64,000 nt of DNA from Heptranchias perlo. Lineage: Eukaryota. Below are positions 76 through 24,475 of the stretch, in pieces (position 1 is the first letter of the stretch; each line of letters begins with the position of its first letter). Under the pieces are notes generated by a model. That model saw nothing but the letters and a program-made list of their open reading frames with translations, was not told the origin of the DNA and did not search any database. The DNA lies in the NCBI RefSeq assembly GCF_035084215.1, contig NW_027139969.1:1-64000 (forward strand). Direction: 5' to 3'. Made by a program: the position numbers and the translations under genes.

Positions 76-429
76 CATCCTTGTAAATCTTTTTTGCATC
101 TTCTCCAGTGCCTCTATATCCTTTTTTGTGGTGTGGTGGTACATTGAATGTGAAAGACCTTAATGTGGGCCCTGAGACATCAGGTATAAAGGCACATCGG
201 GCTCGGTCATTCCTTGTGGTGCTTTTATTAATAAATCAGCTTTAACACACGCATAAAATCTGGACAACCCTGGTGACAGTGGGCTGCAAAGATCAATATA
301 TAGTGAATAAGGATTCTGGGGGGGGTTTCTGGAGGAGATTATTACTCTGTGAATTAAAGGGGTGAGGGTGGTGGGAGGAGGTGGAAGGAGGAGGTGGGAG
401 GAGGAGGGAGGAGGGGGGTGGGGTGGGGT

Positions 430-576
430 TTAGAGGAAGGCATCGCACCACTCCCTGAGGCAGCGGTAACAGTCCTCTGATTGTCTGTTGCCTGCATAGC
501 ACGCCTGTCTCATCCAACACTTGAAGGCTGCTTTATCCTGCTTGAGTAGTAGGAACTGGCCCAGGACATCTTTGGC
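430..576 (-). CDS. BAF-family paralog (BANF1-like tandem duplicate), last coding exon
   Basis: After tttttag acceptor: [51 protein letters not shown], 147 nt, collinear with human BAF residues 42-89; minus-strand AATAAA near 224-229. Confidence 0.92.
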
Positions 577-756
577 CTAAAAAGGGACCAGTCAAAACAA
601 GACATTATGATATTCCGTACTCACACACACATCTTAATGCTCCCCGCGCACACCCCCTACATACACGTGTTATATATATTTATAAGGCAGCAATGTGTGG
701 TAATGAGCCACACAGTCCCCAGTCAGGGTATCTGAGTGTCCAGCCCCCGGGGGATC

Positions 757-997
757 TCAGGACGCCAGGGAGAACTCCCCCCCCCCCGCTCTTCTTCCAA
801 TAGTGGCCGTGGGATCTTTTACATTCACCTGAGAGGGGCAGACGGGGCCCTCGGTTTAACGTCTCATCTGAAAGACGGCGCCTCCGACAGTGCAGCACTC
901 CTCAGTACTGCGCTGGAAGAGTCAGCCTGGATTTTGTGCTCGAGTGGGGATCGAACCCACGACCTTCTGACTCAAGAGGCAAGTGCTGCCACTGAGC
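757..997 (-). mobile_element. DeuSINE (SacSINE1-like), partial
   Basis: Reverse complement of the Deu domain (GGAGGCGCCGTCTTTCAGATGAGACGTTAAACCGAGG) plus tRNA-like head. Confidence 0.75.
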
Positions 998-1222
998 CTA
1001 ACAGCACGGGGGGGGAGAACCTTCACCACACGGACTGCAGCGGTTCAGGATGGCGGCTCACCACCACCTTCTCAAGGGGCAACCAGGGATGGGCAATAAA
1101 CGCCGGCCTTGTCCCACACCGCAAGACTGAATGAGGTCTGTCAGGTCGGTGGGGCATTAGGAAGGTCAAGGCTCGCCCTGAAGCTTTCCGTGACCCCCCC
1201 ACCCCGGGGGCAGAGCTCTCAC

Positions 1223-1373
1223 CTTGCAGAAGCCCTTCTCCTCCAGCCGGCCCCCCAGGACCAGGCCAATGCCCGCCAGCTCCTTCACGGACTTTTCCTT
1301 CATGGGTTCCACCACGAAATTCTTGTGCTTCTGCGACGTGGTGGAGATGGGCAGACGGGTGCTCGCTGTGGAA
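1223..1373 (-). CDS. BAF-family paralog, exon encoding the N-terminal half of the BAF domain (no ATG at the usual start)
   Basis: [50 protein letters not shown]|gtgag; same phase-0 intron position as BANF1; polypyrimidine tract with candidate acceptors giving exon starts at 1373 or 1365. Confidence 0.9.
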
Positions 1374-1696
1374 CTGTCAGAGAGAGAGAGAGAGAGAGGG
1401 GGGCACCGTTAGTAACAGCCGAGCGGAGGTCAGGGGTCGAGCACTGCCCTTCGATCCCACGCCCAGGATGTGTGTCATAGACTCAGACAGCACAGAAGGA
1501 GGCCATTCGGCCCATCTTGCCTGTGCCGGCTCTTTGACAGAGCCATCCAATTAGTCCCACTCCCCCCTGCCCTTTAGCACAGAAACAGGCCATTCAGCCC
1601 AACTGGTCCATGCCGGTGTTTATGCTCCACATGAGCCTCCTCCCACCCCTCTTCATCTATCCCTATCAACATATCCTTCTATTCCCTTCTCCCTCA

Positions 1697-2230
1697 TGAG
1701 AGACGGACAGAGAGAGGGAGAGAGACAGTGAGTCAGATAGACGTAGACCGTCAGAGAGAGAGAGAGAGAAAAACAGTGAGAAACAGAAAGAGACTGACAG
1801 TGAGAGAAACTGAGAGACAGAGAGAGACAGAGATTGAGAGAGACTGAGTGAGCGAGAGACTGAGAGAGAAAGAGACAGTGATACAGAGACTGAGTGTGAG
1901 AGAGACAGAGACAATGAGAGTCAGATAGAGAGAAAGAGATCGTGAGAGAGACACAGACAGTGAGAGAGACAGAAACTGAGAGACAGTGAGAGAGACTGAG
2001 AGAGAGATAGTGAGAGACAGAGACAGTGAGAGAGACAGCCAGAGAGACTAAGAGAGAGAGACAAACAGTGAGAGACAGAGACAGACAGAGATTGAGACAG
2101 ACAGAGAGAGGACAGAGACTGAGGAGAGACAGACAGAGACTGAGAGACAGTGAGAGAGAGAATGAGAGACTCAGAGACAGACAGACAGAGAGACACAGAC
2201 AGACAGAGACTGAGAGAGACAGTGAGAAAG
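1697..2230. repeat. Degenerate (GA)n/(GACA)n tract
   Basis: Direct inspection. Confidence 0.9.
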
Positions 2231-2327
2231 ATGTGCACTGACTTCCTTCCCTTATTTTGATGAGCATATGATCAATGTAAAAGATTCCTACCTAAAACAG
2301 CTCTCCCCTCCTTGAAGGACCTCTCAC

Positions 2328-2760
2328 CTTTCTCTGCATTGAATTCAGTGACTGCAGGCGATCGCAAATTCATCTCTGATTCCCAGTGACTCGCACTAAC
2401 TGCTGCAGGCCTTTCCACTTTATGATCGAAGTCCACTTTGTACCACTGGCTGGGGTCAGTGAGGTGCAGACCGCAGTCAGTGAGGTCACCCTTTGTGGTG
2501 TCAGGGTTACACAGGACTGACCACAGGTAGTGGGTGACAGGGGCCCATTGTGACCTCTCGGGCCACCTCTCCTGTGTGGTGTGTGGGGGGAGGAGGTTGG
2601 TGCTGCTCAGATGGCAGCTGGTTTTGGTGCAGTGTGTCCTGAGAACACTCAGTCAACCCATTCCATTTGGCCCCACCATGGTCTCAGTGGGGAAAAGGCG
2701 TAGTTTGCTCCTGAGGGAGGTTTTCAGCCCATCGGCCTGTGCTGGATTTATAGCCACGGG
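2328..2760 (-). other. Candidate upstream exon of the BAF paralog (one in-frame TGA or compensating indels)
   Basis: Unique sequence with ccccag acceptor and AAAG|gtgaga phase-1 donor that fits the 1365 acceptor; frame open from 2652 to the donor; TGA at 2653-2655. Speculative. Confidence 0.3.
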
Positions 2761-2788
2761 CTGGGGGTGAAAGGGAGTGTACTCAGAA

Positions 2789-2975
2789 CCCATATACACA
2801 GCGCCCATATACAGGGCCTATATACACACAGCGCCTATATACACGGCATCCATTCACAGTGCCCCATACACACAGCACCCATTTACATACCTATACACAT
2901 TGCACCTATATACACTGCACCCATATACAACACAGTTACACACCACCCACATACATACCTATATACACAGCACCC
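2789..2975. repeat. About 15-bp degenerate tandem repeat (CCCATATACACAGCR)
   Basis: Direct inspection. Confidence 0.75.
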
Positions 2976-4861
2976 AGTCCGATACCAGGACCGCTGGGCC
3001 CGTAGCCATTGCAGATGTCGGGAGTGTAACCGCTGGGTCCGGGAGCTCCTTGCTTTCTGATTTAGCGCACAACTCGCACCTTGTGCAGGTATAACTCCCC
3101 CCTGGATACATCGCAGGCCCACTCCATCTCACCACCAAACTTCCCACCCTTCTCGGCAACAATCAGCAGCCTAGAGATTCGCGCAGACCCATTTTTGAGC
3201 ACGCTGGGGGTGGGGTTTGGGGAGGGGGGCCTGAATGGTGAGGCCCAGGTGCCCCCGATATTGGGTCGCGGGCCTCATTAGCATCGAGCCAGCGAGCAGA
3301 CGATCGCAACCCTCAGGCCAGTGATTAAAAGGGACCGTCCCCGCCTGGTTGAATGTGAGGTGGGGGGTGAGCACTGCATTCGAGAAAGGACTTGCTGAGG
3401 CCGTGTAAGGAGCAATGTAAATGCACGAGGGTTGCAGCAGCAGATGAGCAGTTAACCCAGGATAGGTTTACAGGCAACTTCAGGCTGCTTCTGACAGATG
3501 CTTTCCCTTCTCAACTCTTTCTGCACCTTACTCTGATTCATTCTTAGACTCTCGCCCACCCCACCCGACCCAAACACTCGCAGCCAGAATTCGCAGCAAT
3601 GTAACCTTATGGTCTTAAAGGGACAGGCAGCATAATCCACGACACGTGCTATAAAACAGCAGACTCTCTGAGCACTTCCAAGGCAGACTCTCAGTTACAG
3701 ACCTGCACCTAACACATGCCTGGCCCACAACAATCGACGGCCATGGCCTTTCAAGGCCGGATTTCCTTTGAGCTGGAGCCAGGAATCTACAAGCACTTAC
3801 AATGACCCGGTTGCTACTCCTTGCCCGTGGCTTTTAAAAGGGACAGGCCACATTAGCAGCTGCAGACACACAAGGAATGTTAAAAACGTGCTCCTTTGGT
3901 GCGTAGAGACGTACTGATCCGAGGGCCCAGGTTCCAGCCCCATTCAGCAGATCTCACCTTCGTTAGGGGGGTGGAGGGAGGAGAGGAGTGGCTGAGTCCG
4001 CAAATGGTGTCAGGGCCCTCCCAGGGATGGATAGGGGAAAAAAAACCACACAGCCAGCGCCACCGCCACTGGAAAGAAAGGAAAACACGAGAGAAAAAAA
4101 AAGAGAATTCAATTAACACTTTGATTTATTTATTTTTTATTATATAAAATTTAATAACAGGTTTCCAGAGAGACCCTGAATCTCACCACTGTGAAAAGTA
4201 CAAGTGAAATCAGATCAGACGGAAATCCTGAAGTTAAGATTGAATAAAATGGTTCACGTTTACATAGAAAATTCAGCTTGGATTCACTTTCTCCCACTCA
4301 AAACAGCAAATTACTTCACACAGCAAAAAAAGGAGCAGTGGTCTTCGAGGGGATGCGGTTGGGTATTTAACAGTGTACACTACCATGAGCGGATTGAGGG
4401 GAGCTTCAAAAGGAGGGGGGGGGGGGTGCCAGAGGGGGAGAGAGAGACGCCAACCCAAACGAGCAGTCTAGCATTCGGCAAAGTAAAAACCTCACCGGGT
4501 CAGTAAAGACAGGCTCGATTTAACCGTAGCAGGAGAGAAATGCAGGAGATTAAAAACAACTCATGCCACAAGGGAGGTCGGTATCTTGCACCCTCCCCTC
4601 CCTGCAACGCAGCAGCTGGGTGAAACAGAGACGCTTTCGTCATTGCCATCAGTCCACACTCACTAATCTCAGCAGCCAAGTCGGGCGACTGATACGATTT
4701 CAGCAGAGAGGGAAAACGCTCTCCCCGGGTGTGAACCGTGGAATCTCAAAAGCTGGAGATAATTTCACTTCATTTTAAGATCACTAAAAGTACAACGGGG
4801 AGGAGGGGAGGGGGGCAGGGAACGGGAGGGGAACCGCAGGCAGGCAGGTTGGTTGGTTGGT

Positions 4862-5006
4862 TTACAGGAAGGCGTCACACCACTCCTCAGGCAGGTATGG
4901 CAGTCGCTGCTTTGCTTGGAGTTGGCCTGGCACGTGTCCTTCAGCCACTCTTTGAAGAGGTCCTCGTTTTTCTTCAGGACGAGAAACTGTCCAGCACCAC
5001 GTACGC
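4862..5006 (-). CDS. BANF1: Barrier-to-autointegration factor 1, last coding exon (two 1-nt deletions in this sequence)
   Basis: ttcag|AYVVL(G)[34 protein letters not shown](R)EWCDAFL-TAA; 145 nt rather than 147; one base missing near 4991 and one near 4885. Confidence 0.92.
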
Positions 5007-5051
5007 CTGAAGAGAAATTAATGAGAGATTACTTCTAGTGCCCATTCGCAC

Positions 5052-5475
5052 AGGGCCTTTCACCACCTCAGGACGTCCCAAAGCGCTTTACAGACAATGA
5101 AGTACTTTACTGAAGTGTAGACACTGATGTAGGAAACATGGCCACCAATTTGCACACAGCAGATCCACAAACAGCAGTGTGATCATGACCAGATCATCTG
5201 TTTTTAGGTGTTGGTTGAAGGATAAATATCGGCCCCAGGACCCCGGGGAGAACTCCCCCCCTGCTCTTCTTCCAATAGCGGCCCGGGGGATCTTTAACAT
5301 CCACCCGAGAGGGGCAGACGGGGCCCTCGGTTTAACGTCTCATCCGAAAGACGGCACCTCCGACAGTGCGGCGCTCCCTCAGTACTGGCACTGGGGAGTG
5401 TCGGCCTGAAGTCTCTGGAGTGGGGGCTCGAACCCACGACCTTCTGACTCCGAGGCGAGAGAGTGCTACCCACTC
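5052..5475 (-). mobile_element. DeuSINE (SacSINE1-like) in a BANF1 intron
   Basis: B-box head, Deu domain and L2-type tail. Confidence 0.8.
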
Positions 5476-5699
5476 ATTAGTGGTAGAGTTAGGGCTTAAT
5501 AGACAACCCCCCCAGCTACACAAATGGAGATCCGCTGAGAACACTGGGGTGTTTTCTCCGAATCTACACACCAATAGCTACTGATAAGTCAGCGAGTTAA
5601 ATGTGCAAACTCAGAGCAGAAAGGGCCCACGTTCTGTAGAAACAGATCACAACTGCCTTAGTTTAGTTTAATTAACAGTAATAAATAATAAATTCACTA

Positions 5700-5940
5700 A
5701 TAAACCCAATCAGGAATTCAGGAGAAACTTCTTTACCCAGAGAGTGGTGAGAATGTGGAACTCGCTCCCACAAGGAGTGGTTGAGGCGAATAATAAATAC
5801 ATTTACGGGGAAGCTCGATAAACACACGAGGGAGAAAGGAATAGAAGGATATGCTGATAGGGTGAGATGAAGTAGGGAGGGAGGAGACTCGTGCAGGGCA
5901 TAGACCTGTTGGGCTGAATGGCCTATTTCTGTGCTGTACG
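5700..5940 (+). mobile_element. CR1 LINE 3' end fragment
   Basis: Encodes RRNFFTQRVVRMWNSLPQGVVEA, followed by the CR1 3' UTR. Confidence 0.75.
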
Positions 5941-6069
5941 ATGCGTGTAATTACAAAACGGAGAATCAGAGCCAGAGAGGGCCGGTGTTCTGTACACGGC
6001 TGCTCTCAGCACAGGTCGGGGACAGAACCCAGGGCCTAGCTGTCCACGCTGTGGGCGCCAATCACCTAC

Positions 6070-6192
6070 CCTGTCGAACCCCTGGTCTTCCAGTCGTCTG
6101 CCAAGGGCTTCTCCGATTCCCGCCAAGCACCGGACCGATTTCTCCCCCATGGGCTCTGCCACGAAATCCCGGTGTTTCTGCGATGTCGTCAT
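6070..6192 (-). CDS. BANF1: Barrier-to-autointegration factor 1, first coding exon
   Basis: [41 protein letters not shown]|gtaggt, closely matching human BAF 1-41; head-to-head with EIF1AD as in human. Confidence 0.96.
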
Positions 6193-6354
6193 TGTGCCGC
6201 TGTGTGTACTTAAAAAAAAAACAAACACACGCAGAAAATCAGAACAGCGGGGCTTGGAGGGTTAAATTACGAGCACTGGAGCTTTCAAGACCGAGATCGA
6301 TCAATCACAATCAGGGGTAAGGAGACCAAGACCAATCGCAGCTCACCATTGAAA

Positions 6355-8860
6355 GGTTACAGCGTGGAAGGAGACCATTTGGCCCATCGAGTCCGTGCCA
6401 GCTCTATGCAAGAGCAATCCAGCTAGTCCCACTCCCCCGCCCGATCCCTGTAGCCATGCTATTTTTTTCCTTTCAAGTACTTATCCAGTTCCCTTTTGAA
6501 GGTCATTATTGAATCTGCCTCCACCACCCCCTCGGGCAGTGCATTCCAGATCCTAACCACTCGCTGTGTAAAAAAGTTTTTCCTCATGTCACCTTTGGTT
6601 CTTTTGCCAATCACCTTAAATCTACGCCCTCTGGTCCTTGTCCCTTCCGCCAATGGGAACAGTTTCTCTCTATCTACTCTGTCTCGACCCTTCATGATTT
6701 TGAACACCTCGATCAAATCTCCTCGCAACCGTCTCTATTCCAAGGAGAACAACCCCAGCTTCTCCAGTCTATCCACGTAACTAAAGTCCCTCATCCCTGG
6801 AAATTCTAGCAAATCTTTTCTGCACCCTCTCTAAGGCCTTCACATCTTTCCTAAAGTGCGGTGCCCAGAACTGAACACAATACTCCAGTTGTGGCCGAAC
6901 CAGTGTTTTATAAAGGTTCATCATGACTTCCATAATTTTGTACTCTATGCCTCTATTTATAAAGCCCAGGATCCCGTATGCTTTTTTAACCACTTTCTCA
7001 ATCTGCCCTGCCACCTTCAACGATTTATGCACATATACCCCCAGATCTCTCTGTTCCTGTACCCCTTTTAGAGTTGTGCCCTTTAGTTTATATTGCCTCT
7101 CCTCATTCTTCCTACCAAAATGTATCACTTTGCATCTTTCTGCATTAATTTTCATCTGCCACGTGTCCGCCCATGTCACCAGCCTGTCTATATTTTTTTT
7201 TATTTGTTCACAGGATGTGGGCGTCGCTGGAGAGGCCGGCATTTATTGCCCATCCCTAATTGCCCTCGAGAAGGTGGTGGTGAGCCGCCTTCTTGAACCG
7301 CTGCAGTCCGTGTGGTGACGGTTCTCCCACAGTGCTGTTAGGAAGGGAGTTCCAGGATTTTGACCCAGCGACGATGTCTATCACTATCCTCCTCACTGTT
7401 CACTACCCTTCCAAGTTTTGTGTCATCTGCAAATTTTGAAATTGTGCCCTGTACACCAAAGTCATTAATATATATCAAGAAAAGCAGTGGTCCCAGCACT
7501 GACCTCTGGGGAACATCACTGTTCCCCAGTCCAAAAAACAACCGTTCACCACTACTCTGTTTCCTGTCTCTTAGCCAATTCTGTATCCATGGTGCTACTG
7601 CCCCCTTTATTCCATGGGCCGCAATCTTGATTCCTACCATGTGGCACTTTACCAAACACCTTTTGAAAGTCCACATACACCACATCAACTGCATTGCCCT
7701 GATCTACCCTCTCCATTACCTCATCAAAAAAAAAACTATCAGGTTAGTTAAATACGGTTTGCCTTTAACAAATCCATGCTGGCTTTCCCTAATCAATCCA
7801 CCCTCATCCGAGTGACTGTTAATTCTGTCCCAGATTATCGTTTCTAAAAGTTTCCCCACCACTGAGGTTAAACTGACTGGTCTATAGTTGCTGGGTTTAT
7901 CCTTACACCCTTTTTTGGGGTAACATTTGGAATTCTCCAGTCCTCTGGCACCACCCCTGTATCTACGGATGTTTGGAAGATTATGGCCAGTACCTCCGCA
8001 ATTTCCACCCTTACTTCCCTCAGCAACCTAGGATGCATCCCATCCGGACCGGGTGACTTATCTACTTTAATACAGCTAGCTTTTCAAATACCTCTATCAA
8101 TTTTTAGCCCATCCAATCTCTCAACTCTATCTTTCTTTTCTGAGACCCGGACAGCATCTTCTTCCTTGATAAAAACAGATGCAAAGTACTCATTTAGTAC
8201 CTCAGCCAGGCCCTCTGCCTCCATGTGTAGATCTCCTTTATGGTCCCTAATCGGTCCCACCCCTCCTCTCACTACCCGTTTCCATGCCTGTAGAAGACTT
8301 TTGGATTCTCTTTTATGTTGGCCGCCAGTCTATTCTCATACTCTCCCTTTGCCTCATTTCCTTTTTCACTTCCCCTCTGAACTTTCTATATTCAGCCTGG
8401 TTCTCACTTGTGTTATCGACCTGACATCTGTCATACGCCCCTTTTTTCCATTTCATCTTACTCTCTATCTCTTGTGTCACCCAGGGAGCTCTGGCTTTAG
8501 TTGCCCTGCCTTTCTGCCTCATGGGAATGTACCTAGACTGTACCCAAACCATCTCCTCCTTAAAAGGCCGCCCACTGTTCAATTACAGTTTTGCCTGCCA
8601 ATCTTTGATTCCAATTTACCCGGGCCAGGTCTGTTCTCATCCCACTGAAATTGGCCCTCCTCCAATTGAGTATTTTTACTTTAGAGTGGTCCGTGTCCTT
8701 TTCCATAGCTATTCTAAACCTTATGATACTGTGATCGCTGTTCCCTAAATGCTCCCCCACTGACACTTGCTCCACCTGCTCCACTTGGCCCGCCTCATTC
8801 CCTAGAACCAGATCCAGCAATGCCTCCTCCCTCGTTGGGCTGGAAACATACTGGCCAAGA
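6355..8860 (-). mobile_element. CR1 LINE, 5'-truncated decayed ORF2
   Basis: PTREEALLDLVLGNE, GNSDHSII, VPQRSVLGPLLFLIYIND, SKFADDTKL, LYKTLVRPQLEYCVQFWAP, FFTQRVVRIWNALP; many frameshifts. Confidence 0.92.
7192..7375 (-). mobile_element. 3' tail of a second LINE family nested in the CR1
   Basis: Reverse complement of the GGGATGGGCAATAAATGCCGGCCTC...GACGCCCACATCC-poly(A) tail interrupting the CR1 RT region. Confidence 0.8.
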
Positions 8861-8917
8861 TGCAAGGTAAACTATATGATCCATCTCCAACTCCTTATGC
8901 CCCATTGATCGTACAGA

Positions 8918-9330
8918 AAGAACTTGCATTTATATAGCGCCTTTCACAACCTCAGGACATCCCAAAGTGCTTTACAGCCAATGAAGTACTTTTTGAAGTG
9001 CAGTCACTGTTGTAATGAAGGAAACAAAGCAGCTAATTTGCACATAGCAAGATCCCACAAACAACAATGTAATAATGATCAGATAATCTGTTTTAGTGCT
9101 GTTGGTTGAGGGATAAATATTGACCAGGACACCGGAGAGAACTCCCCCACTCTTCAAAATATTGTCTTGGGATCTTTTACGTTCACCTGAAAGACAGCAC
9201 CTCTGACAGTGCAGCGCTCCCTCAATACTGCTGTGGGAGTGCCAGGCTCGATTATATCTCTGGCGTGGCCCTGGAACCCACAACCTTCTGACTCGAGACA
9301 AGAATGCTACCCACTGAGCCACGGCTGAAA
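8918..9330 (-). mobile_element. DeuSINE, internally deleted
   Basis: Same head and tail as the other copies. Confidence 0.75.
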
Positions 9331-9899
9331 CCTGGAACACGGGTACAGCAGCCCAGAGTTTAAGGGACTGGGCCAGAAAATCTCACCACGTTCAATAAAT
9401 CTGGCAATTCATGGTCCGTCTCTGGAAAAACAGCCACGAAAAGCTGCCAGATTGGCACAAACGCCCAACTGGTTCAGGAATGTGCTTCAGGGAAAGGTAC
9501 CTGCCGCCCTGACTGGGCTGGCAGTGACTGTAGTCACGCAATGTGTTGCTGAATCAACACCCTAGGGCGAGGCATCACCCACATCCAGAGAACGACAGTA
9601 AACAAAACAATCAGGTAACCCACACGAGGGGCGCAAAGCAGGAATAAACCCGGACTGTCACCAGGGACTGCCCCCTCCCCCTGCTCCGCTCCAAACCCTA
9701 ACCCCACCCCCGCTCCAAACCGCCCCCCCCTCCCAGGCTGGTTGGTAAAACTCAGCCTGGCTGACCCAGTACCACCTGGGCTCAGGATGTGGCAAAGATG
9801 CCCCCCACACACCAGGGAGGGGGAATGTTTTTTTTCCCCATGCAGACCCCCTCCCCACCTCGGGCTCATCGCTGAAAGATGTCCAACTCTCCTGACTAT

Positions 9900-10720
9900 C
9901 CGACTGCGGGAGGCTGCACAGCCGGGCCCAGCCCGTGATACCCCGCACTGACCGATAGGGGGCATCGCCGCCGCTCCCGGGGGGAGGCCGGGGGTCTCTG
10001 CGGCTGCGCAGTAGAGAGAGTCAGACCGACCGGCCGGTCGGCTCCCCCCCGGGCCCGGGAACTCCTCGGCCCGGCGCCCGGCTCCCCTCTCACCCGGCCT
10101 CCCTCCACCCCTCTCCCCTCGCCTCCCTCCACCCCTCTCTCCTCTCTCCTCCCCCCGGGCCGGGCCCCGCTCTCCCTCACCCGCCGCTGCTGCTCCTGCC
10201 GCCCGATCCCGCCAACCAACCGCTTCTGGGTCACGACCTCGTCCCGTCCTTTTTAAACCCTCCCCCCCGGTCCCGCGCCCCCGTCGCCGCTGCTCTTTCG
10301 TTCCGAGCGGTAAATATAAATCCAGCCGCTCCTTTTAGTTCCAGAAAGAGAGGGGGAGGGGGCGCTGAATCCCGAGTGAAGAACGCACTTCACTCACCCC
10401 CTCCCCGGGTAAAGCCCCCTCCTCCTCCCCGGTCACCGATTTAATGAGCCGGGGGTGGGGGAAGGAAGAAAGGTCGGACCGGAAGTTCTGTTGGGCGATG
10501 ATGGCGGCTGAGAGCAGGTGAGAGACGCGGCGGGTCCCGGGGAGGAGGGGCGGCGGGTCCCGGGGAGGAGGGGCGGCGGGTCCCGGGGAGGAGGGGCGGC
10601 GGGTCCCGGGGAGGAGGGGCGGCGGGTCCCGGGGAGGAGGGGCGGCGGCGACGGCGGGTCCCGGGGCGGCGGCGGCGGGTCCCGGGGAGGAGATCGGCGG
10701 CCCGGGGGGTCTGGGCCCCG
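9900..10720. promoter_or_regulatory. CpG island / bidirectional BANF1-EIF1AD promoter with 5' exons
   Basis: GC/CpG-rich; minus-strand donor gtgag at about 10176-10180 (BANF1 exon 1); plus-strand donor gtgaga at 10518 (EIF1AD exon 1); ETS/GABP CCGGAAGT 10479-10486; YY1-type ATGGCGGC at 10501; TATA-like TAAATATAAA at 10311. Confidence 0.75.
10528..10700. repeat. 23-bp GC-rich tandem repeat in EIF1AD intron 1
   Basis: GGGTCCCGGGGAGGAGGGGCGGC units. Confidence 0.85.
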
Positions 10721-10739
10721 GGGGGAGCGTTCACCGACT

Positions 10740-11365
10740 TCCATCCCCTCTGCCTCAGCCCATCTGCTGCTCAAACCCTCATCCGTGCCTTTATCACCTC
10801 CAGACTGGACTGTTCCAACCCTCCCCTGGCCGCTCTCCCATCTCCCACCCTCCGTAAACCTTCAGCTCATCCAAAACCCTCCCCCCCCCCCCCCGCCCCG
10901 TATCCTAACTCGCCCCGAGCCCCATTCACCCATCACCCCACTGTGCTCGCTGACCTACATCGGCTCCCGGTCCAGGAACACCTCGATTTTAAAATTCTCG
11001 TCCTCGTATTTAAATCCCTCCGTGGCCCTCGCCCCCCCTCCCTATCTCTGTAACCTCCTCCAGTCCCTCCAACCCTCCGAGATCTCTGCACTCCTCCAAT
11101 TCTGGCCTCTTGCGCATCCCCGATTCCCATCGCTCCGCCATTGGCGGCCGTGCCTTCAGCCCCCCGGGCCCTAAGCTCTGGAATTCCCTCCCTAAACCTC
11201 TCCGCCTCTCTCTCCTCCTTTAAGACGCTTCTTAAAACCTCCCTCTTTGACCGAGCTTTTGGTCACCTGTCCTAATATCTCCTCATGTGGCTCGGTGTCT
11301 GATTTTGTTTGATAATCGCTCCTGGGATGTTTTACTACGTTAAAGGCGCTATATAAACTGCAACT
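10740..11365 (+). mobile_element. L2 LINE 3' fragment
   Basis: L2 ORF2 C-terminal motifs (SRLD, LQLIQN, FKIL, IGGRAFS, GPKLWNSLP); tail AAAGGCGCTATATAAA shared with the DeuSINEs. Confidence 0.85.
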
Positions 11366-11664
11366 TCTTTCTGCTCCACTCGGTGCTTTTGATAAAATGC
11401 GCTGCACAGATATTACAGCTTGCCAGAACACTGATTGATTGCCAAGTGCTGGAGGAAGTTTGAAGTCCTGCGGCGGCCTGTAATTGGATCATTAAGTGAA
11501 ACAGAGGCCTGGATTCCCCTCCGAATTACCCCCTGTTTTGGGGCAGAAAATCAGAGCAAAGTCTGTTCTTAAAGGCTTCTGCCTCAAAAAAACTGGACCT
11601 GAATTCTCCCAAAAATTGCCAGTTCCCTTTAAAGCTAACCACAAGCCCATTCCACCATGTTTCA

Positions 11665-11822
11665 GTGGGGGTGGGTGGGCCTGGCACTGCCCCAGGGAAT
11701 TGGGGGTGGGTGGGCCTGGCACTGCCCCAGGGAATCGGGGGTGGGTGGGCCTGGCGCTGCCCCAGGGAATCGGGGGAGGTGGGCCTGGCGCTGCCCCAGG
11801 GAATCGGGGAGGTGGGCCTGCT
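11665..11822. repeat. About 35-36-bp tandem repeat
   Basis: GTGGGCCTGGCRCTGCCCCAGGGAATCGGGG, about 4 copies. Confidence 0.8.
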
Positions 11823-11900
11823 GCTGCCTCGGGCTCAGTTGTGCTTTTGTCCTGCAGGTTTTACTGGACTCTGAGTTGAACGCACTGCCCAGAGCCCGAG

Positions 11901-11987
11901 ATGTCCCAGGCGACAAAGCGGAAGCACGTGGTGCAGGAGGTGCTGGGCGATTACGCACCACCGTCCGAGAAACAACAGATTGTGCGG
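11901..11987 (+). CDS. EIF1AD: EIF1AD (probable RNA-binding protein) coding exon 1
   Basis: [29 protein letters not shown]|gtaagg; acceptor cctgcag ends 11857. Confidence 0.95.
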
Positions 11988-12097
11988 GTAAGGACGTGTC
12001 AGAACTTGGCCCAGCACCCACTACCTCACAGGGTAACCCCAGACACTGGGTGCAGCTGAGGCTCTTTATCCCCGCCCCCTCCCCCCCCAATGTCCCT

Positions 12098-13475
12098 GAC
12101 CCGCACTGGGGCACGGGTCCCACGGACGCGGACCCGCACTGGGGCACGGGTCCCACGGACGCGGACCCGCACTGGGGCACGGGTCCCACGGACGCGGACC
12201 CGCACTGGGGCACGGGTCCCACGGACGCGGACCCGCACTGGGGCACGGGTCCCACGGACGCTGACTGTAAGACCTTTGCCTCTACCTTATCTGATTGATT
12301 GATTAATAGGTTTGAGAGTCTGTTATGAATAACTTTCATACTTTATTAATGTAAGATTTAGCCTCTGCCTTATCTTATACATATAATTCATCACTCGAAG
12401 TAAGCTGGCAAGTGAAATACGTCTATATACTTACAAGCAGAGTGCCGATTGAGTGGACCTCGCGTGGCCTGAGCTCGTTCTCCGCTGTCTTTAGTCCAAG
12501 CTGCTCACCGGCCACTAGGATGCTCTAACCTTTATCCTCACTCACTCACTCTCAAACAAACTCATCTCACCTGACAGACAGAACTCCAAGTGTGCTCGAT
12601 TTCAGTGCGAAACCACAGCTGTGACTGGGCCCCTTTCTTATCTGTGTTTCACAGGGGTCCTGTTCCTTGCTGCCTGACAGAGCTCTTTGTGTTTCTCCTT
12701 CATCCCTAAACTAGCTTAGTTTTTGTTAGTCATGTTAGTTCTTATTGTATTAAAATCATATGTTATAATCTGATCTGTTGTTCACTATTGATTTAGTCTA
12801 CGTTGTAATCAGCCATAGACAGTCACACCTCCTTCCTTATCCCCTCTCAATCTTATCTTGCCTTTTCTAGCTGGCTAGCTAACAGATATGTCTCTTACCT
12901 GCGCTATCTCTGCTGAGAGATGTGACTATCTGATTATACAGACTCAGGCTAAATTCACTTACCTAAAATACCTCTGTCAGCTATATTCTGCTAATGCCTC
13001 TAAAACCTACACTGACTCTCGCTGGGGTACGGGTCCCGCGGACACCGACTCTCGCTGGGGTACAGGTCCCGCGGACACCGACTCTCGCTGGGGTACAGGT
13101 CCCGCGGACACCGACTCTCACTGGGGTACGGGTCCCACGGACACCGACTCTCACTGGGGTACGGGTCCCGCGGACACCGACTCTCACTGGGGTACGGGTC
13201 CCACGGACACGGACTCTCACTGGGGTACGGGTCCCACGGACACCGACTCTCGCTGGGGTACGGGTCCCGCGGACACCGACTCTCGCTGGGGTACGGGTCC
13301 CGCGGACACCGACTCTCGCTGGGGTACGGGTCCCGCGGACACCGACTCTCGCTGGGGTACGGGTCCCGCGGACACCGACTCTCGCTGGGGTACGGGTCCC
13401 GCGGACACCGACTCTCGCTGGGGTACGGGTCCCGCGGACACGGACTCTCGCTGGGGTACGGGTCCCGCGGACACT
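12098..13475. repeat. 33-bp minisatellite interrupted by the solo LTR
   Basis: Left 12098-12265 GACCCGCACTGGGGCACGGGTCCCACGGACGCG; right 13012-13475 GACTCTCGCTGGGGTACGGGTCCCGCGGACACC. Confidence 0.9.
12266..13011 (-). mobile_element. Solo LTR (746 bp) with 5-bp target-site duplication
   Basis: Starts TGTAAG, ends CCTACA; flanked by CTGAC at 12261-12265 and 13012-13016; AT-rich against GC-rich flanks; minus-strand AATAAA at about 12342-12347. Confidence 0.82.
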
Positions 13476-13755
13476 CATCTGCCCTCAGGTGGATGTACTC
13501 GATCTCACGACCAATATTTCGAAGAAGAGCAGGGGGAGTTCTCCCCGGTGTGCTGGGCCAATATTTATCCCTCAACTAACACCTAAAACAGAAGATCTGG
13601 GTCATTATCACATTGCTGTTTGGGATCTTGCTGTGCACAAACCGGGGCTGCCGCATTTCCTACATCACAACAGTGACCACACTTCAAAAAGTACTTCATT
13701 GGCTGTAAATCGCTTCGGGACGTCCTGAGGTGGTGAGAGGTGCTGTAGAAATGGG
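13476..13755 (+). mobile_element. DeuSINE 3' half
   Basis: Matches the 3' part of the other copies. Confidence 0.75.
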
Positions 13756-13788
13756 AGTCTGACTATTCTCTTGAACTCATTCCTCCAG

Positions 13789-13897
13789 GTGATCGGAACG
13801 CCAGGGAATAATCTGCACCAAGTGGAAACCTCCGAGGGGGAGCGTTTCCTCGCCAGCATGCCCACCAAATTCCGCAAGAACATCTGGATCAAACGAG
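13789..13897 (+). CDS. EIF1AD: EIF1AD coding exon 2 (S1-like/eIF1A domain)
   Basis: ctccag|[37 protein letters not shown]|gtacgg. Confidence 0.96.
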
Positions 13898-14275
13898 GTA
13901 CGGAGACGACCGAGCCCGGGCATCGTTCGCGCCCGCTCGGGGAGCCCCCCCTCACCTCACGCCAGTCAGGAGCGAGACTTGGTGTGAGGCCCCTTTAAAC
14001 GGGGGGGGGGGGGCCGCTCACTTGGGGTGGGGGGTGGGAACGCGCCAGAATGACTGGGCATAATCTGGGCGCTGGGGATTGTGTTTTCGTTCCTAACCTC
14101 CGGGTGCCGGGTGACCTCAGGGACTTGTCGGGCTGCTCTTATCGGAGCCCTGAGCTGCAGGAGAGGGGGTGTGGGGGGGGAGAGAGGGGGAGGACGGCCT
14201 AACTCGGGGCAGGCCGGGAGAGGAGCCTGAGCCTTTCCTGTTTCTACACTGATGGCTGAGTTTTTTTTTGTTCAG

Positions 14276-17606: not shown

Positions 17607-18044
17607 CTGGACGGAGCAGGGAAAGAAAAAGGCGGCGGCGGTCACAAATCAGACGGACGGGTTACGTTCCACCCTAGTGTCCCAGGGCTCGTCCCTCCCC
17701 AGTTTTCTCCTGAGGGGTCGGTCACTAGGTGTTGGGAAGAGGGAGAATCGGCCATAGTTCCTGCTCGCTGTCCCGTGATCCCTGGCGGAATCTACACGGG
17801 CGTCAGGCGAGGACAGAGTCCGCTGTGATGCCCCCCACAGTTGAATATTCGGCCGATTTATCCGTGCACAGACGTGGGAGAGGTCGAGACCCATGGGACC
17901 GGCCAAGGGGGGGTGGGGGAAAGAGAAGAATGACCACAGCAGAGGTATTTGAGGGAGCCACCCGTGTCCAGCTCCCAAGAAAGACATAGGTGCCTGACGC
18001 GCAGACTGGTGTGGGGAAACTCTCAAATATAAAATACAACTCAC

Positions 18045-18134
18045 ATGTTCCTCTTCCAGCTTCTTCATCCGTTTCTCAGTCTTCATCTTGCCAGATCCTT
18101 TCCCATGGAAGCGGTGAGAGAGCTGTCTGAAGGC
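18045..18134 (-). CDS. SART1: SART1 exon 18
   Basis: AFRQLSHRFHGKGSGKMKTEKRMKKLEEEH|gtgagt (hallmark Snu66/SART1 motif). Confidence 0.96.
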
Positions 18135-18289
18135 CTGTTTGTAGTAAGATGACGCCCGTTAGTTACAGACAAAGAACACGGCGGGTCTGACAGCAGGTCT
18201 CACCCTCTATCTCAAGGGAGGGCTCAACAGGAGAAATGAGGGCAACAGGAATAACTTTGAAATGTCAACTCCATCTTTTCCCACCATCT

Positions 18290-18745
18290 CCCTCAACCCC
18301 ATCAACCAGGATAAATCAGTCTGCCCGATCACTACCCGAAACATTCACTCCCTTCACCACCGGAGCACTGTGGCTGCAGCGTGCACCATCCACAGGATGC
18401 ACTGCAGCAACTCGCCAAGGCTTCTTCGACAGCACCTCCCAAACCAGTGACCTCCACCACCTAGAAGGACAAGGGCAGCAGGCACATGGGAACAACACCA
18501 CCTGCACGTTCCCCTCCAAGTCACACACCATCCCGACTTGGAAATATATCGGCCGTTCCTTCATCATCGCTGGGTCCAAATCCTGGCACTCCCTTCCTAA
18601 CAGCACTGTGGGAGAACCTTCACCACACGGACTGCAGCGGTTCAAGAAGGCAGCTCACCACCACCTTCTCAAGGGGCAGTTAGGGATGGGCAATAAATGC
18701 CGGCCTCGCCAGCGACGCCCACATCCCAAGAATGAATATAACAAA
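18290..18745 (+). mobile_element. LINE 3' fragment (second family)
   Basis: NIHSLHHRSTVAAACTIHRMHCSNSPRLLRQHLPN, SKSWHSLP, then stem-loop tail. Confidence 0.82.
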
Positions 18746-18911
18746 AAGAGGGACAACGTCACACAGCTCCGGGTGCAAGTAGCAGAAGAGACCCAGAGCA
18801 GGGTTACTGCGGCTGAGGGAGAGAGAAATTAATCACTAGTCACTTACACTTGCAAAAAATATACGGGAGCGTAATGAAACCCAGAGTGTTCTTGGTCCAT
18901 TGTAAAAGAAA

Positions 18912-19190
18912 AAAGACTTGCATTTATATAGCGCCTTTCACGTCCTCAGGACATCCCAAAGCGCTTTACAGCCAATGAAGTACTTTTTTTGAAGTGTAGT
19001 CACTGTTGTAATGTAGGAAACGCAGCAGCCAATTTGCGCACAGCAAGATCCCACAAACAGCATTGAGATAATGATCAGATCATTTTTTTTTTGTGATGTT
19101 GGTTGAGGGATAAATATCGGCCCCAGGACACCGGGGAGAACTCCCCCCTGCTCTTCTTCCAATAGTGGCCGTGGGATCTTTTACATCCAC
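18912..19190 (-). mobile_element. DeuSINE 3' half
   Basis: Tail and body match the other copies. Confidence 0.75.
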
Positions 19191-19245
19191 CGTGTTTTTT
19201 TTGTACCTCCGCACGAGCTGCCGATTCAGATTTTCATCTCCTTAC

Positions 19246-19381
19246 CTCCTTCGGAGTCAGTCTCCTCCCCGACTCATCGACATAATCGATCTTGACGTCC
19301 GGCCGGTATCCCTCCTTCTCCTTGAACTCCTGAGTGAAGCCTCGGTACTCCTCTCTCCTACTGTACTTGTCGTCAATCAAC
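19246..19381 (-). CDS. SART1: SART1 exon 17
   Basis: LIDDKYSRREEYRGFTQEFKEKEGYRPDVKIDYVDESGRRLTPKE|gtaag. Confidence 0.96.
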
Positions 19382-19626
19382 CTGCATCGAAACATCACAG
19401 TTAAAGTTACCAGCAGGCTCGGCGAGGGCTCGCCCACAGGGACGGGTCCCTTATGAAGAATTATTTTGTTATTCCTAATTATTTTGGGGGTGGCAATCCG
19501 CCAGAAATAAGACATGGGGCTGAGTCGGGAAGTGGGCCCCCCGTGTTCCCACCTCCAGCTGGACAGCCCTGATCAGGGACATGCACTGAACTTGTACCAG
19601 CTGTTGTCGCCGGGCCGTGATTTAAT

Positions 19627-20266
19627 GGCGCGGAGAGCCCCCCGCCTCCGCCCCCGGGCGCGCGGAGCCCCCCGCCTCCGCCCCCGGGCGCGCGGAGCCC
19701 CCCGCCTCCGCCCCCGGGCGCGCGGAGCCCCCCGCCTCCGCCCCCGGGCGCGCGGAGCCCCCCGCCTCCGCCCCCGGGCGCGCGGAGCCCCCCGCCTCCG
19801 CCCCCGGGCGCGCGGAGCCCCCCGCCCCCGCCCCCGGGCGCGCGGAGCCCCCCGCCCCCGCCCCCGGGCGCGCGGAGCCCCCCGCCCCCGCCCCCGGGCG
19901 CGCGGAGCCCCCCGCCCCCGCCCCCGGGCGCGCGGAGCCCCCCGCCCCCGCCCCCGGGCGCGCGGAGCCCCCCGCCCCCGCCCCCGGGCGCGCGGAGCCC
20001 CCCGCCCCCGCCCCCGGGCGCGCGGAGCCCCCCGCCCCCGCCCCCGGGCGCGCGGAGCCCCCCGCCCCCGCCCCCGGGCGCGCGGAGCCCCCCGCCCCCG
20101 CCCCCGGGCGCGCGGAGCCCCCCGCCCCCGCCCCCGGGCGCGCGGAGCCCCCCGCCCCCGCCCCCGGGCGCGCGGAGCCCCCCGCCCCCGCCCCCGGGCG
20201 CGCGGAGCCCCCCGCCCCCGCCCCCGGGCGCGCGGAGCCCCCCGCCCCGGGCGCGGAGCTCCCCCG
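19627..20266. repeat. 30-bp almost all-GC minisatellite, SART1 intron 16
   Basis: CCCCCGGGCGCGCGGAGCCCCCCGCCYCCG, about 21 copies. Confidence 0.95.
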
Positions 20267-20282
20267 TGAAGCTGTTGCTTAC

Positions 20283-20373
20283 ATTTTGTCTTCAATGGCG
20301 TAAACTGTCGATGGCAGGGTTTTGACCGATGACCGGACTCGGGCCACTTTTTGCATGGTGGTGTCGAGCAGAC
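20283..20373 (-). CDS. SART1: SART1 exon 16
   Basis: (G)LLDTTMQKVARVRSSVKTLPSTVYAIEDKM|gtaagc. Confidence 0.93.
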
Positions 20374-20804
20374 CTGGAACAGAGAGGAACAGGAGTCACT
20401 GGCGCTTCTCGCTGGGCCAAAGCTCCTCGTTAACTTACAGGCTGCGTCGATCAAATCTCACCACGTTCCCCCGCCTCTGCTGCAGGTCCAGCTCGTGCTG
20501 AGGGCAGCCCTTCAGCACCGCACCCAAGTGGTCCCTTCTTCGCGTGTGAGCCCGGACACCGAGCGTCGGCCGGCTATTCGACCACGGGAGCAGCACGCGC
20601 AAGCCCGGTCCTGCCCTCAACCCGGTATTTCGCACACTTTCCAGCAGGCGTCACTGGGTAGCGACTAGGGAGCAGGAAACAGGGCTGATCCGGGGTGGGG
20701 GCTACTCAGGGACGATCGCAGCCTCCACGAGCCGCCCCTGGCTCAGACAGGATAATTCAGCGCAGCTCGGGGCAGAGTCTTGGACTCTCCCGATTTCGTT
20801 GAAC

Positions 20805-21245
20805 CATACAGCACAGAAGGAGGCCATTTGGTCCATCGAGCCTGTGCCGGCTCTTTGAAAGAGCTATCCAATTAATCGCACTGCCCCCCTGCTCTTTCCC
20901 CATTAGCCCTGCAAATTTTTCCTTTTCAAGTATTTATCCAATTCCCTTTTGAAAGTTATTATTGAATCTGCTTCCACCGCCCTTTCAGGCAGCGCATTCC
21001 AGATCAGAACAACTCGCTGTGTAAAAAAAAAATCACCTCATCTCCCCCTCTGGTTCTTTTGCCAATTATCTTAAATCCGTGTCCTCTGGTTACTGACCCT
21101 CCTCCCACTGGAAACAGTTTCTCCTTATTTACTCGATCAAAACCCCTCATGATTTTGAGCCCCTCGATTAAATCTCCCCTTAACCTTCTCTGCTCTAAGG
21201 AGAACAACCCCAGCTTCTCCAGTCTCTCCACCTAACTGAAGTCCC
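20805..21245 (-). mobile_element. CR1 3' fragment
   Basis: ERLEKLGLFSLEQRRLRGDLIE...TRGHGFK. Confidence 0.85.
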
Positions 21246-21381
21246 TGCCGATTGTACTGAGCATCTGTACACAGCTCAGTGCTGCGCTGGCCAGTCCGCT
21301 GACACTCTCCCTGGATCACAAAGCAGGACGTTTCGAGGGGCCAACGTTGAGCGGTGGGATTCCCGCAGCCGGTTAACCTGC

Positions 21382-21469
21382 CTTTGTTTCTGCAGAGGTG
21401 CAGTGCAGCTGCCAGCCCGCAGTTCACGATGGGTTCTTCGTCTAGAATGGTCGTGGAGGTGGCCAAGAA
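21382..21469 (-). CDS. SART1: SART1 exon 15 (GC donor)
   Basis: FLATSTTILDEEPIVNCGLAAALHLCRNKG; frame requires AAG|gcaggt. Confidence 0.9.
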
Positions 21470-21647
21470 CTAAGAGAGGGAGGGAGAGATAGTGGGTTAG
21501 TAACACGGCAGCCAACGTGAGCACAGCAAGATCCCATGAACAGTAATGACCAGATGATCTGGGTTTTTTTTTTGGTGATGTTGGGCTGGACTGGCTTTGA
21601 AGCCAGCCGACCTTTGACCCACCCCCGGTCCTGATACGGGATCTCAC

Positions 21648-21758
21648 CTCTGGCTGCTTCTTCTCCTCGTCCAGATTCACTGTGCTCCAGCCCACAGTCT
21701 CATCCCGGTCCAGCTCCATCTCTCCATCCGATAATTCCTTGTTCTCCACCTCAAAATC
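21648..21758 (-). CDS. SART1: SART1 exon 14
   Basis: DFEVENKELSDGEMELDRDETVGWSTVNLDEEKKQPE|gtgaga. Confidence 0.92.
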
Positions 21759-21778
21759 CTGCAGAGAGGTTGAACAAA

Positions 21779-22614
21779 CAGCACGGGTTAGATACAGAGT
21801 AAAGCTCCCTCCCTCTACACTGTCCCTATCAAACACTCCCAGGGCAGGTACAGCACGGGTTAGATACAGAGTGAAGCTCCCTCTACACTGTCCCATCAAA
21901 CACTCCCAGGGCAGGTACAGGGTTAGATACAGAGTAAAGCTCCCTCCACACTGTCCCATCAAACACTCCCAGGGCAGGTACAGGGTTAGATACAGAGTAA
22001 AGCTCCCTCCACACTGTCCCATCAAACACTCCCAGGGCAGGTACAGGGTTAGATACAGAGTAAAGCTCACTCTACACTGTCCCATCAAACACTCCCAGGG
22101 CAGGTACAGGGTTAGATACAGAGTAAAGCTCCCTCCACACTGTCCCATCAAACACTCCCAGGGCAGGTACAGGGTTAGATACAGAGTAAAGCTCCCTCCA
22201 CACTGTCCCATCAAACACTCCCAGGGCAGGTACAGGGTTAGATACAGAGTAAAGCTCCCTCCACACTGTCCCATCAAACACTCCCAGGGCAGGTACAGTG
22301 TTAGATACAGAGTAAAGCTCCCTCCACACTGTCCCATCAAACACTCCCAGGGCAGGTACAGGGTTAGATACAGAGTAAAGCTCCCTCCACACTGTCCCAT
22401 CAAACACTCCCGGGGCAGGTACAGGGTTAGATACAGAGTAAAGCTCCCTCTACACTGTCCCATCAAACACTCCCAGGGCAGGTACAGCACGGGTTAGATA
22501 CAGAGTAAAGCTCCCTCCACACTGTCCCATCAAACACTCCCGGGGCAGGTACAGGGTTAGATACAGAGTAAAGCTCCCTCTACACTGTCCCATCAAACAC
22601 TCCCGGGGCAGGTA
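21779..22614 (+). repeat. 62-bp (67-bp variant) minisatellite
   Basis: CAGGGCAGGTACAGGGTTAGATACAGAGTAAAGCTCCCTCYACACTGTCCCATCAAACACTCC-type unit, about 13 copies. Confidence 0.95.
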
Positions 22615-22634
22615 GACGCTCATGTCCGGACTGT

Positions 22635-22928
22635 GATGGAATACTCACTCTCCACTTGCCTGGACTGGTGCCACCACAACAACACTCAAGAAGCCCAACA
22701 CCACCTGGAGCAGAGCAGTTCACTCCATAAGAGCAGCAGTGTTGTGGGAACACCATTACCTGTAAGTTCCCCTCCAACTGACACATTACCCCTACTTGGA
22801 AATATATCGGCTGTTCCTTCATCGACACTGGGACAAAATCCTGGAACTCCCCATCAACACTGTGGGAGCACCTTGGCCACACGGACTGCAGCGGTTCAAG
22901 GGGATGGCCCAACATCACCACCTTCGCA
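22635..22928 (+). mobile_element. Degenerate LINE 3' fragment (second family) leading into the 38-bp array
   Basis: GTGATGGAATACTC...CAAAATCCTGGAACTCC...CGGACTGCAGCGGTTCAAG, homologous to 50298-50826. Confidence 0.75.
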
Positions 22929-24475
22929 ATTAATGCCGGCCTCGCCAGCGACCGGCAGGGGGGCAATTAATGCCGGCCTCGCCAGCGACCGGCAGGGGGG
23001 GCAATTAATGCCGGCCTCGCCAGCGACCGGCAGGGGGGGCAATTAATGCCGGCCTCGCCAGCGACCGGCAGGGGGGGCAATTAATGCCGGCCTCGCCAGC
23101 GACCGGCAGGGGGGGCAATTAATGCCGGCCTCGCCAGCGACCGGCAGGGGGGGCAATTAATGCCGGCCTCGCCAGCGACCGGCAGGGGGGGGCAATTAAT
23201 GCCGGCCTCGCCAGCGACCGGCAGGGGGGGCAATTAATGCCGGCCTCGCCAGCGACCGGCAGGGGGGGCAATTAATGCCGGCCTCGCCAGCGACCGGCAG
23301 GGGGGGCAATTAATGCCGGCCTCGCCAGCGACCGGCAGGGGGGGCAATTAATGCCGGCCTCGCCAGCGACCGGCAGGGGGGGCAATTAATGCCGGCCTCG
23401 CCAGCGACCGGCAGGGGGGGCAATTAATGCCGGCCTCGCCAGCGACCGGCAGGGGGGGCAATTAATGCCGGCCTCGCCAGCGACCGGCAGGGGGGGCAAT
23501 TAATGCCGGCCTCGCCAGCGACCGGCAGGGGGGGCAATTAATGCCGGCCTCGCCAGCGACCGGCAGGGGGGGCAATTAATGCCGGCCTCGCCAGCGACCG
23601 GCAGGGGGGGCAATTAATGCCGGCCTCGCCAGCGACCGGCAGGGGGGGCAATTAATGCCGGCCTCGCCAGCGACCGGCAGGGGGGGCAATTAATGCCGGC
23701 CTCGCCAGCGACCGGCAGGGGGGGCAATTAATGCCGGCCTCGCCAGCGACCGGCAGGGGGGGCAATTAATGCCGGCCTCGCCAGCGACCGGCAGGGGGGG
23801 CAATTAATGCCGGCCTCGCCAGCGACCGGCAGGGGGGGCAATTAATGCCGGCCTCGCCAGCGACCGGCAGGGGGGGGCAATTAATGCCGGCCTCGCCAGC
23901 GACCGGCAGGGGGGGCAATTAATGCCGGCCTCGCCAGCGACCGGCAGGGGGGGCAATTAATGCCGGCCTCGCCAGCGACCGGCAGGGGGGGCAATTAATG
24001 CCGGCCTCGCCAGCGACCGGCAGGGGGGGCAATTAATGCCGGCCTCGCCAGCGACCGGCAGGGGGGGGGCAATTAATGCCGGCCTCGCCAGCGACCGGCA
24101 GGGGGGGCAATTAATGCCGGCCTCGCCAGCGACCGGCAGGGGGGGCAATTAATGCCGGCCTCGCCAGCGACCGGCAGGGGGGGCAATTAATGCCGGCCTC
24201 GCCAGCGACCGGCAGGGGGGGCAATTAATGCCGGCCTCGCCAGCGACCGGCAGGGGGGGCAATTAATGCCGGCCTCGCCAGCGACCGGCAGGGGGGGCAA
24301 TTAATGCCGGCCTCGCCAGCGACCGGCAGGGGGGGCAATTAATGCCGGCCTCGCCAGCGACCGGCAGGGGGGCAATTAATGCCGGCCTCGCCAGCGACCG
24401 GCAGGGGGGGCAATTAATGCCGGCCTCGCCAGCGACCGGCAGGGGGGGCAATTAATGCCGGCCTCGCCAGCGACG
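22926..24475 (+). repeat. 38-bp minisatellite derived from the LINE 3' tail
   Basis: GCAATTAATGCCGGCCTCGCCAGCGACCGGCAGGGGGG, about 40 copies. Confidence 0.95.

Follow-up and report, generated by a model that had tools for sequence, protein, structure and literature searches.

An intact, spliced BANF1 paralogue in Heptranchias perlo, shared with other cartilaginous fishes

Two genes for barrier-to-autointegration factor (BAF) lie in tandem on the minus strand of a 64,000-nucleotide stretch of Heptranchias perlo DNA (RefSeq GCF_035084215.1, contig NW_027139969.1, positions 1 to 64,000), referred to here as the window. BANF1 itself has coding exons at 6192..6070 and 5006..4862 (-) and a non-coding first exon that ends near 10181, with RNA joints at 4992/6069 and 6208/10181. 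The last BANF1 exon measures 145 nt in the assembly instead of 147, with 1-base losses near 4885 and 4992; the missing bases are present in RNA contigs, and the short exon is an assembly error, not a broken gene. Head to head with BANF1 are the first exons (and these only) of EIF1AD (10181..13899, +; Pfam eIF-1a match, E 8.6e-12), joined GT..AG at 10513/11854 and 11986/13788. SART1 exons occupy 17652-29864 (-), where five Pfam SART-1 matches were found among the 148 of 184 candidate frames that were scanned; long GC-rich minisatellites set these exons apart. Since EIF1AD is head to head with it and SART1 is nearby, the gene at 4862-10181 is the true BANF1; the human gene order is SART1-EIF1AD-BANF1. 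It is this gene, and not its paralogue, that stands head to head with EIF1AD, near SART1 and with the canonical residues. At 10181-10513 a single RNA contig joins BANF1 exons to EIF1AD exons; contigs cannot prove one transcript, and the two genes seem to meet or overlap at their 5' ends. Contig depth was ~5-7 over the paralogue and ~700-2100 over BANF1, values that are unfit for ranking the genes.

Elsewhere in the window, Galactosyltransferase (PF01762) matches fall in two overlapping frames at 42269-43333 (-) and are probably one gene with another assembly indel. Positions 51005-61797 form a 10.8-kb array of a 20-base unit (~540 copies), which is followed by a short inverted-looking block (62397-62856) and then by a different, 17-19-base array that runs to the window end.

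The paralogue lies ~3.5 kb from BANF1 on the same strand (the BANF1 stop is at 4862-4864), and the original prediction was right in describing two exons there that encode a full BAF domain. The second coding exon (1223..1373, -; AG acceptor 1375-1374, GT donor 1222-1221) holds the remaining part of an N-terminal extension and BAF residues 1-41, and the third (430..576, -) holds BAF residues 42-89 and the stop. Both match PF02961 above its curated cut-off and jointly make up the full BAF core; the orthologue P0002 matches the profile over positions 1-88 of 88 (E 4e-38). The intron between the two exons is GT-AG and falls after codon 41, the place it also takes in BANF1 (6070|5006), as had been predicted, and in a further BAF gene on contig C8. 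Its splice, 576/1223, is present in X5 and X6 RNA contigs, and the 3' untranslated region covers at least 100..429 (-), one X5 contig spanning 100-575.

This gene had been said to lack the usual start codon. We found an ATG exon at 2328..2373 (-) that matches orthologue N-termini; it begins with the ATG at 2373, holds 15 codons and 1 base (phase 1) and ends at a GT donor (2327-2326). Its translation, MNLRSPAVTEFNAEK, is identical to the N-termini of orthologues at 8/15 positions (P0002) and 9/15 (P0003) and ranks top among the 5364 ungapped 15-aa frames in 1374-4100, with a score of 42 against 19 for the next; the donor is one of the two top scorers within 1380-4900. Homology and phase suggest the 2328-to-1373 junction. 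No RNA was found over the ATG exon in X5-X7, whose contigs are shallow and skip 1369-1409 as repeat, so that this result is neutral. An alternative acceptor at 1365 (CAG|CGA) was rejected: it does not keep frame with the phase-1 donor, and the match of the RNA contig extends to 1368. At 3816-3953, between BANF1 and the paralogue, there is low RNA cover (X5, X7), adjoined by minus-strand donor-like sites at 3958 and 3801; this is possibly a non-coding first exon of the paralogue.

The coding pieces ahead of the core sum to 46+25+1 = 72 nt, or 24 codons, which with a 90-aa core gives 114 aa; the predicted product would start at the ATG at 2373 and carry a 24-aa N-terminal extension. In the AlphaFold2 model of P0002 there are five helices, 81 residues have pLDDT >=90 and residues 1-24 are mostly <50, which points to a disordered extension and not to another domain. 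The proposal of a longer protein with BAF at its C-terminus is supported, but the added part is only 24 residues and is predicted to be disordered. Instead of the stand-alone 89-90 residues of the BAF family, the paralogue is expected to have 114, and most full orthologue models have 112-113; G25, G27 and G47 are present in 19/19 paralogue rows, and the five-helix fold is predicted for P0002.

For the base check, three runs taken as RNA by guess and one DNA run were aligned over 90-4200; the four runs come from one sample, maybe the assembly's own, and are apt for base correction but not independent. An extra G behind 1348 (G run 1349-1351) was carried by DNA contig X2 (depth 23/23) and RNA contig X5 (6.5/6.5), the sole DNA and the sole RNA contig covering this site. 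With the extra G, the frame before the ATC reads Val-Cys-Pro-Ile and matches shark orthologues. Because DNA and RNA contigs carry one base more than the assembly here, the CTG/"LPI" frame is an artefact. In the reading CTG CCC ATC that had been described, the ATC is real and the CTG falls out of frame; the frame thought to be open back to a splice acceptor arises from the 1-base assembly loss, the true upstream frame being Val-Cys-Pro, and the suggested near-cognate CTG start rests on the same error. At 1346-1348 itself the ATC stands, with no alternative letter (and so no ATG) among the covering contigs. It aligns with Met1 of 90-aa BAFs, a position where most species have A, V, T or I, while an internal Met is present there in chimaera and carpet sharks. 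The contig of the window has many 1-base errors, two of them inside BANF1, so that odd starts and frameshifts on it need read support before they are believed.

A PF02961 search of the genome returned three BAF genes (6 matches from 9 candidates): BANF1, the paralogue and the gene on C8 (L003, G000:C8:73443077-73443547), which both the tree and its contig assign to the BANF2 type. The paralogue falls, in a 54-row tree, within a 13-row chondrichthyan clade (support 100/100, stem 0.7), and the C8 gene clusters with proteins of sharks, rays and chimaera. In a 44-row tree, from which ten long or redundant rows were removed, the C8 gene also groups with bony-fish and lizard proteins, several of which are named 'BAF-like protein' (12 rows, SH-aLRT 94). 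The paralogue falls outside this 12-row BANF2-type group in the free tree; AU tests are compatible with its joining shark or lizard BANF2. In parent tests over 89 columns, the shark BANF1 grouping had the best likelihood (+2.15), with p 0.40 for shark BANF2 and 0.47 for lizard BANF2. The tree alone does not fix the parent; BANF1 is favoured because of adjacency, and the paralogue likely arose by its tandem duplication. This agrees with the original prediction of a duplicate in tandem with BANF1; the paralogue is separate from the BANF2-type gene on C8.

PMC3380836 places BANF2 in the RRBP1-SNX5-OVOL2-POLR3F region. On C8 an RRBP1-type match lies at 70.90 Mb and a POLR3F match at 70.55 Mb, 2.5-2.9 Mb from the BAF gene at 73.44 Mb; the window is on contig C1802, and the paralogue is thus not at the BANF2 locus. 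No diverged BANF2 was found beside RRBP1 in C8 70.70-70.90 Mb, 73.34-73.54 Mb holds only the known gene, and PF09325 gave no SNX5-type match on C8. The C8 gene is likely, but not proven, to be BANF2. It keeps the canonical LEM, DNA, dimer and helix-hairpin-helix residues, unlike lizard BANF2, and shark BANF2 may still be an ordinary BAF.

Protein searches returned 22 records of the paralogue, from sharks, rays and Callorhinchus, which databases name only 'barrier-to-autointegration factor A-like', 'B-like' or '-like'. The upstream exon is present in 11 of these (112-113 aa; one with 45 residues more), 4 have other N-termini that resemble intron read-through, and 7 are short models of 75-91 aa. 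Outside the cartilaginous fishes, the 11-site signature of the paralogue was found in none of the best 120 of 320 matches, and in a second search the best 150 of 772 matches included 148 new rows, which had at most 5 of the 11 signature sites, compared with 11 in the paralogue. Among the matches listed, this intact, spliced BANF1 paralogue is found only in cartilaginous fishes. It is lineage-specific, as had been proposed, in the sense of all cartilaginous fishes but not of one species, with orthologues in sharks, rays and chimaera. The holocephalan-elasmobranch split dates to roughly 400 million years ago, and since the chimaera has the paralogue, its origin lies before that split. The window paralogue is 94-97% identical to its orthologues. 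When constraint was gauged by protein identity between shark and ray, the core was 91% identical for the paralogue (20 pairs) and 89% for BANF1 (8 pairs), which indicates that the paralogue is under strong constraint.

In six species (Leucoraja, Pristis, two Chiloscyllium, Rhincodon and Cetorhinus) the paralogue and BANF1 carry consecutive accessions, in Hypanus the two numbers are four apart, and in four more species the two proteins share the size of the longest contig. These accessions and contig sizes give indirect support for a tandem conserved across 11 named species, the chimaera being outside these. Callorhinchus P0004, P0022 and P0024 are three differing versions of the paralogue, one of them far more diverged (branch 0.24), and possibly reflect further duplication in chimaera. 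P0140, P0141 and P0145 are unnamed 209-245-aa proteins with two or three BAF-like stretches each, and are either tandem-domain BAFs or fused gene models.

After removal of three isoform duplicates, 19 rows of the paralogue, two of them without residues 1-14, were set against 117 other BAFs. Position 16 is K/R in 19/19 paralogue rows and G in 113/117 of the others; position 40 is acidic in 0/19 and 117/117, respectively; position 43 is K/R in 19/19 and Y in 111/117; position 44 is D in 19/19 and 0/117; and position 54 is Q in 19/19 and K in 117/117. At position 58 all 19 rows have A/S/V/T where 111/117 others have L/M, and at position 61 all 19 have S/C/N/T where 110/117 have D/E. Further changes are E56K/R, D65Q, N70G (18 rows) and R75E/D (19 rows), position 75 varying widely among ordinary BAFs. 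Of the 17 rows that include position 12, 14 have V/L there; the chimaera has G or S. Judging by their place in or around helix 3 near G47, positions 40, 43, 44 and 54 would lie at the dimer interface. The core charge of the paralogue is +4/+5, compared with a mean of -1.0 in other BAFs. Residues T3, S4, K6, H7, G25, G27, F39, G47, Q48, L52 and W62 and the C-terminal helix are kept. Identity is 61-64% to BANF1 proteins and 64% between the core and human BAF, and at 23 of the 88 core positions the paralogue matches none of the 16 BANF1 rows; 4/8 LEM-contact positions (F39, Q48, L52, W62) and 5/6 lamin-contact positions are as in human BAF.

From these residues we propose, giving the idea about an even chance, that the paralogue forms a DNA-bridging BAF dimer whose binding to LEM proteins and lamin A/C is weakened. 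After the duplication of BANF1, the upstream ATG would have taken over from the old Met1. The protein would still fold, dimerize and bind DNA, since it retains T3, S4, K6, H7, G25, G27 and G47, its core has become more basic, and G16K/R resembles a human variant with tighter DNA binding. It would bind LEM proteins and lamin A/C less well than BANF1, given the altered residues L58 and E61 on the LEM face and A12 on the lamin face. The dimer may be retuned by paired substitutions at 16, 40, 43, 44 and 54, and the outcome could be a chromatin-compacting BAF without BANF1-like anchoring, probably in a restricted tissue or stage. Earlier reports place L58, E61 and V51 at the contact with the emerin LEM domain and show A12 buried where BAF meets lamin A/C (PMC6212729). 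With G16R, a salt bridge forms between the monomers, DNA affinity rises sevenfold and lamin binding falls threefold (PMC10099716); L58R abolishes LEM binding with DNA cross-bridging kept (PMC5638020). In human BAF, DNA binding is weakened by N70T and reportedly abolished by R75E (PMC8606531). N70G and R75E/D in the paralogue point the other way and would argue against kept DNA binding, and L58A is milder than L58R, a point against the loss of LEM binding.

The main alternative, possible but less likely, is that the same gene acts like the testis-enriched BAF-L (BANF2), with poor DNA and LEM binding, and pairs with and damps BANF1, probably in gonads; the role would have evolved in a BANF1 duplicate, and the shark BANF2-type gene would have stayed BAF-like. 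According to 10.1101/2024.05.16.594580, which cites Tifft 2006, BAF-L does not bind DNA, forms a heterodimer with BAF and binds LEM proteins weakly. At 12 positions the paralogue and lizard BANF2 both differ from the 16 BANF1 rows, and at 6 of them (51, 57, 58, 61, 72, 75) the paralogue rows include a residue found in lizard, but this overlap of sites is not beyond chance (p 0.15; two lizard rows compared), and L51 and R72 occur in teleost BANF2 too. The weaker DNA binding that N70G and R75E suggest (PMC8606531) would fit such a role, as would the canonical LEM, dimer and helix-hairpin-helix residues of the shark BANF2-type gene; H7 and G27, however, are kept in the paralogue and lost in lizard BANF2 (H7F, G27N), the paralogue is more basic, and V44D, Y43K and K54Q might hinder pairing with BANF1.

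We consider it unlikely that the paralogue is a near-redundant second BAF, in which the changes compensate, BANF1-like work is done and the extension only tunes location, stability or phosphorylation. Such redundancy would agree with the 61-64% identity to BANF1, with the retention of contact residues, most of those for lamin and half of those for LEM, and with the kept T3/S4 kinase sites. However, the 23/88 core positions that changed relative to all BANF1 rows and were then fixed class-wide form a changed-function pattern, and the charge has shifted by six units.

It is highly improbable that translation from a near-cognate CTG or ATC, or from an internal Met15, yields a 75-91-aa protein. 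The CTG is out of frame once the extra G is counted, the ATG exon is conserved (M1, L/F3 and R4 in 12/12 rows having the exon), and most species carry A, V, T or I in place of Met1; these points outweigh a real ATC that aligns with Met1, the Met found there in chimaera and carpet sharks, the 7/22 database models of 75, 90 or 91 aa, and the lack of an RNA contig across the first junction. That the frameshift shown by the assembly is real, and that this individual carries a duplicated pseudogene, is scarcely credible: the contigs carry the base, 1-base errors are frequent along this assembly contig (BANF1 has two), the RNA is spliced and orthologue identity is 94-97%.

Taken together, the start-codon oddity is an assembly artefact, and what stays is a real, old, class-wide BAF variant with unusual fixed residues. 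BAF, which dimerizes, bridges dsDNA and binds LEM domains and lamin A/C, is among the most conserved animal nuclear proteins, and vertebrates have been described with two genes, BANF1 and BANF2. The protein is already known in databases, under generic BAF-like names only. Our literature search, with subscription journals mostly outside its scope, found no paper on this gene, and a 2026 review names only BAF-L as a second gene (PMC13443024; see also PMC8268354, PMC11811190 and PMC8877947). A third BAF gene, constrained across sharks, rays and chimaeras and fixed for changes at sites that are near-invariant in other BAFs, would be a natural separation-of-function variant, and it allows testing which BAF surfaces can be uncoupled.

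The extension starts M-x-[LF]-R in 12/12 rows, with x acidic in 11/12, S next in 2/12 and a final G in 0/12. Motifs of the LANA/IL-33 kind bind the H2A-H2B acidic patch through an arginine anchor. M-x-L-R spacing is seen in LANA (M6-L8-R9) and foamy-virus Gag (Y537-L539-R540; PMC9040877), and the chromatin-binding hexapeptide of LANA/IL-33 is MXLRSG (PMC4958301). The extension thus shares the spacing of the LANA/IL-33/Gag acidic-patch motif over four residues only; unlike MXLRSG it is without S-G, its second residue is acidic and it is not basic, so that the hexapeptide is not present. A complex prediction of H2A and H2B (L068) with P0002 residues 1-30 scored 0.00, but the controls were unfolded and the alignment unused, and this speaks neither for nor against binding. 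As a putative acidic-patch binder the extension is a lead only. The bolder idea, to which we give little credence, is that this third BAF has exchanged its attachment to the nuclear envelope for one to histones: as a dimer that ignores LEM proteins but binds DNA avidly (G16K/R, A12V/L), it would place its M-x-L-R arm on the nucleosome acidic patch like LANA/IL-33, and BANF2 would have stayed an ordinary BAF.

With BAF/BANF1 (PF02961; PDB 1CI4, 2BZF, 6GHD, 9J8M) the paralogue has in common the fold, the intron after codon 41, T3/S4, K6/H7, G25/G27, G47 and W62; unlike BANF1, it has a 24-aa extension from an extra coding exon and a core charge of +5 versus -1, and it is changed at 12, 16, 40, 43, 44, 54, 56-58, 61, 65, 70 and 75. 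Like BAF-L/BANF2, it is an additional vertebrate BAF whose LEM face is altered, and it shares L51, A57, A58, R72 and E75 with a lizard BANF2. The existence of this third gene also suggests that LEM-face loss arose more than once among BAF duplicates. In contrast to BAF-L/BANF2, it adjoins BANF1, lies off the RRBP1/POLR3F contig, keeps the helix-hairpin-helix residues and has the extension. Finally, the two positions altered in human G16R (motor neuronopathy) and A12T (Nestor-Guillermo progeria) are both changed in the paralogue. Unlike the disease variants, its changes at 16 and 12 are the fixed wild type among some 20 others, and 12 is V/L and not T; the paralogue makes it possible to test how a protein tolerates K/R at 16, where such a change causes dominant disease in humans.
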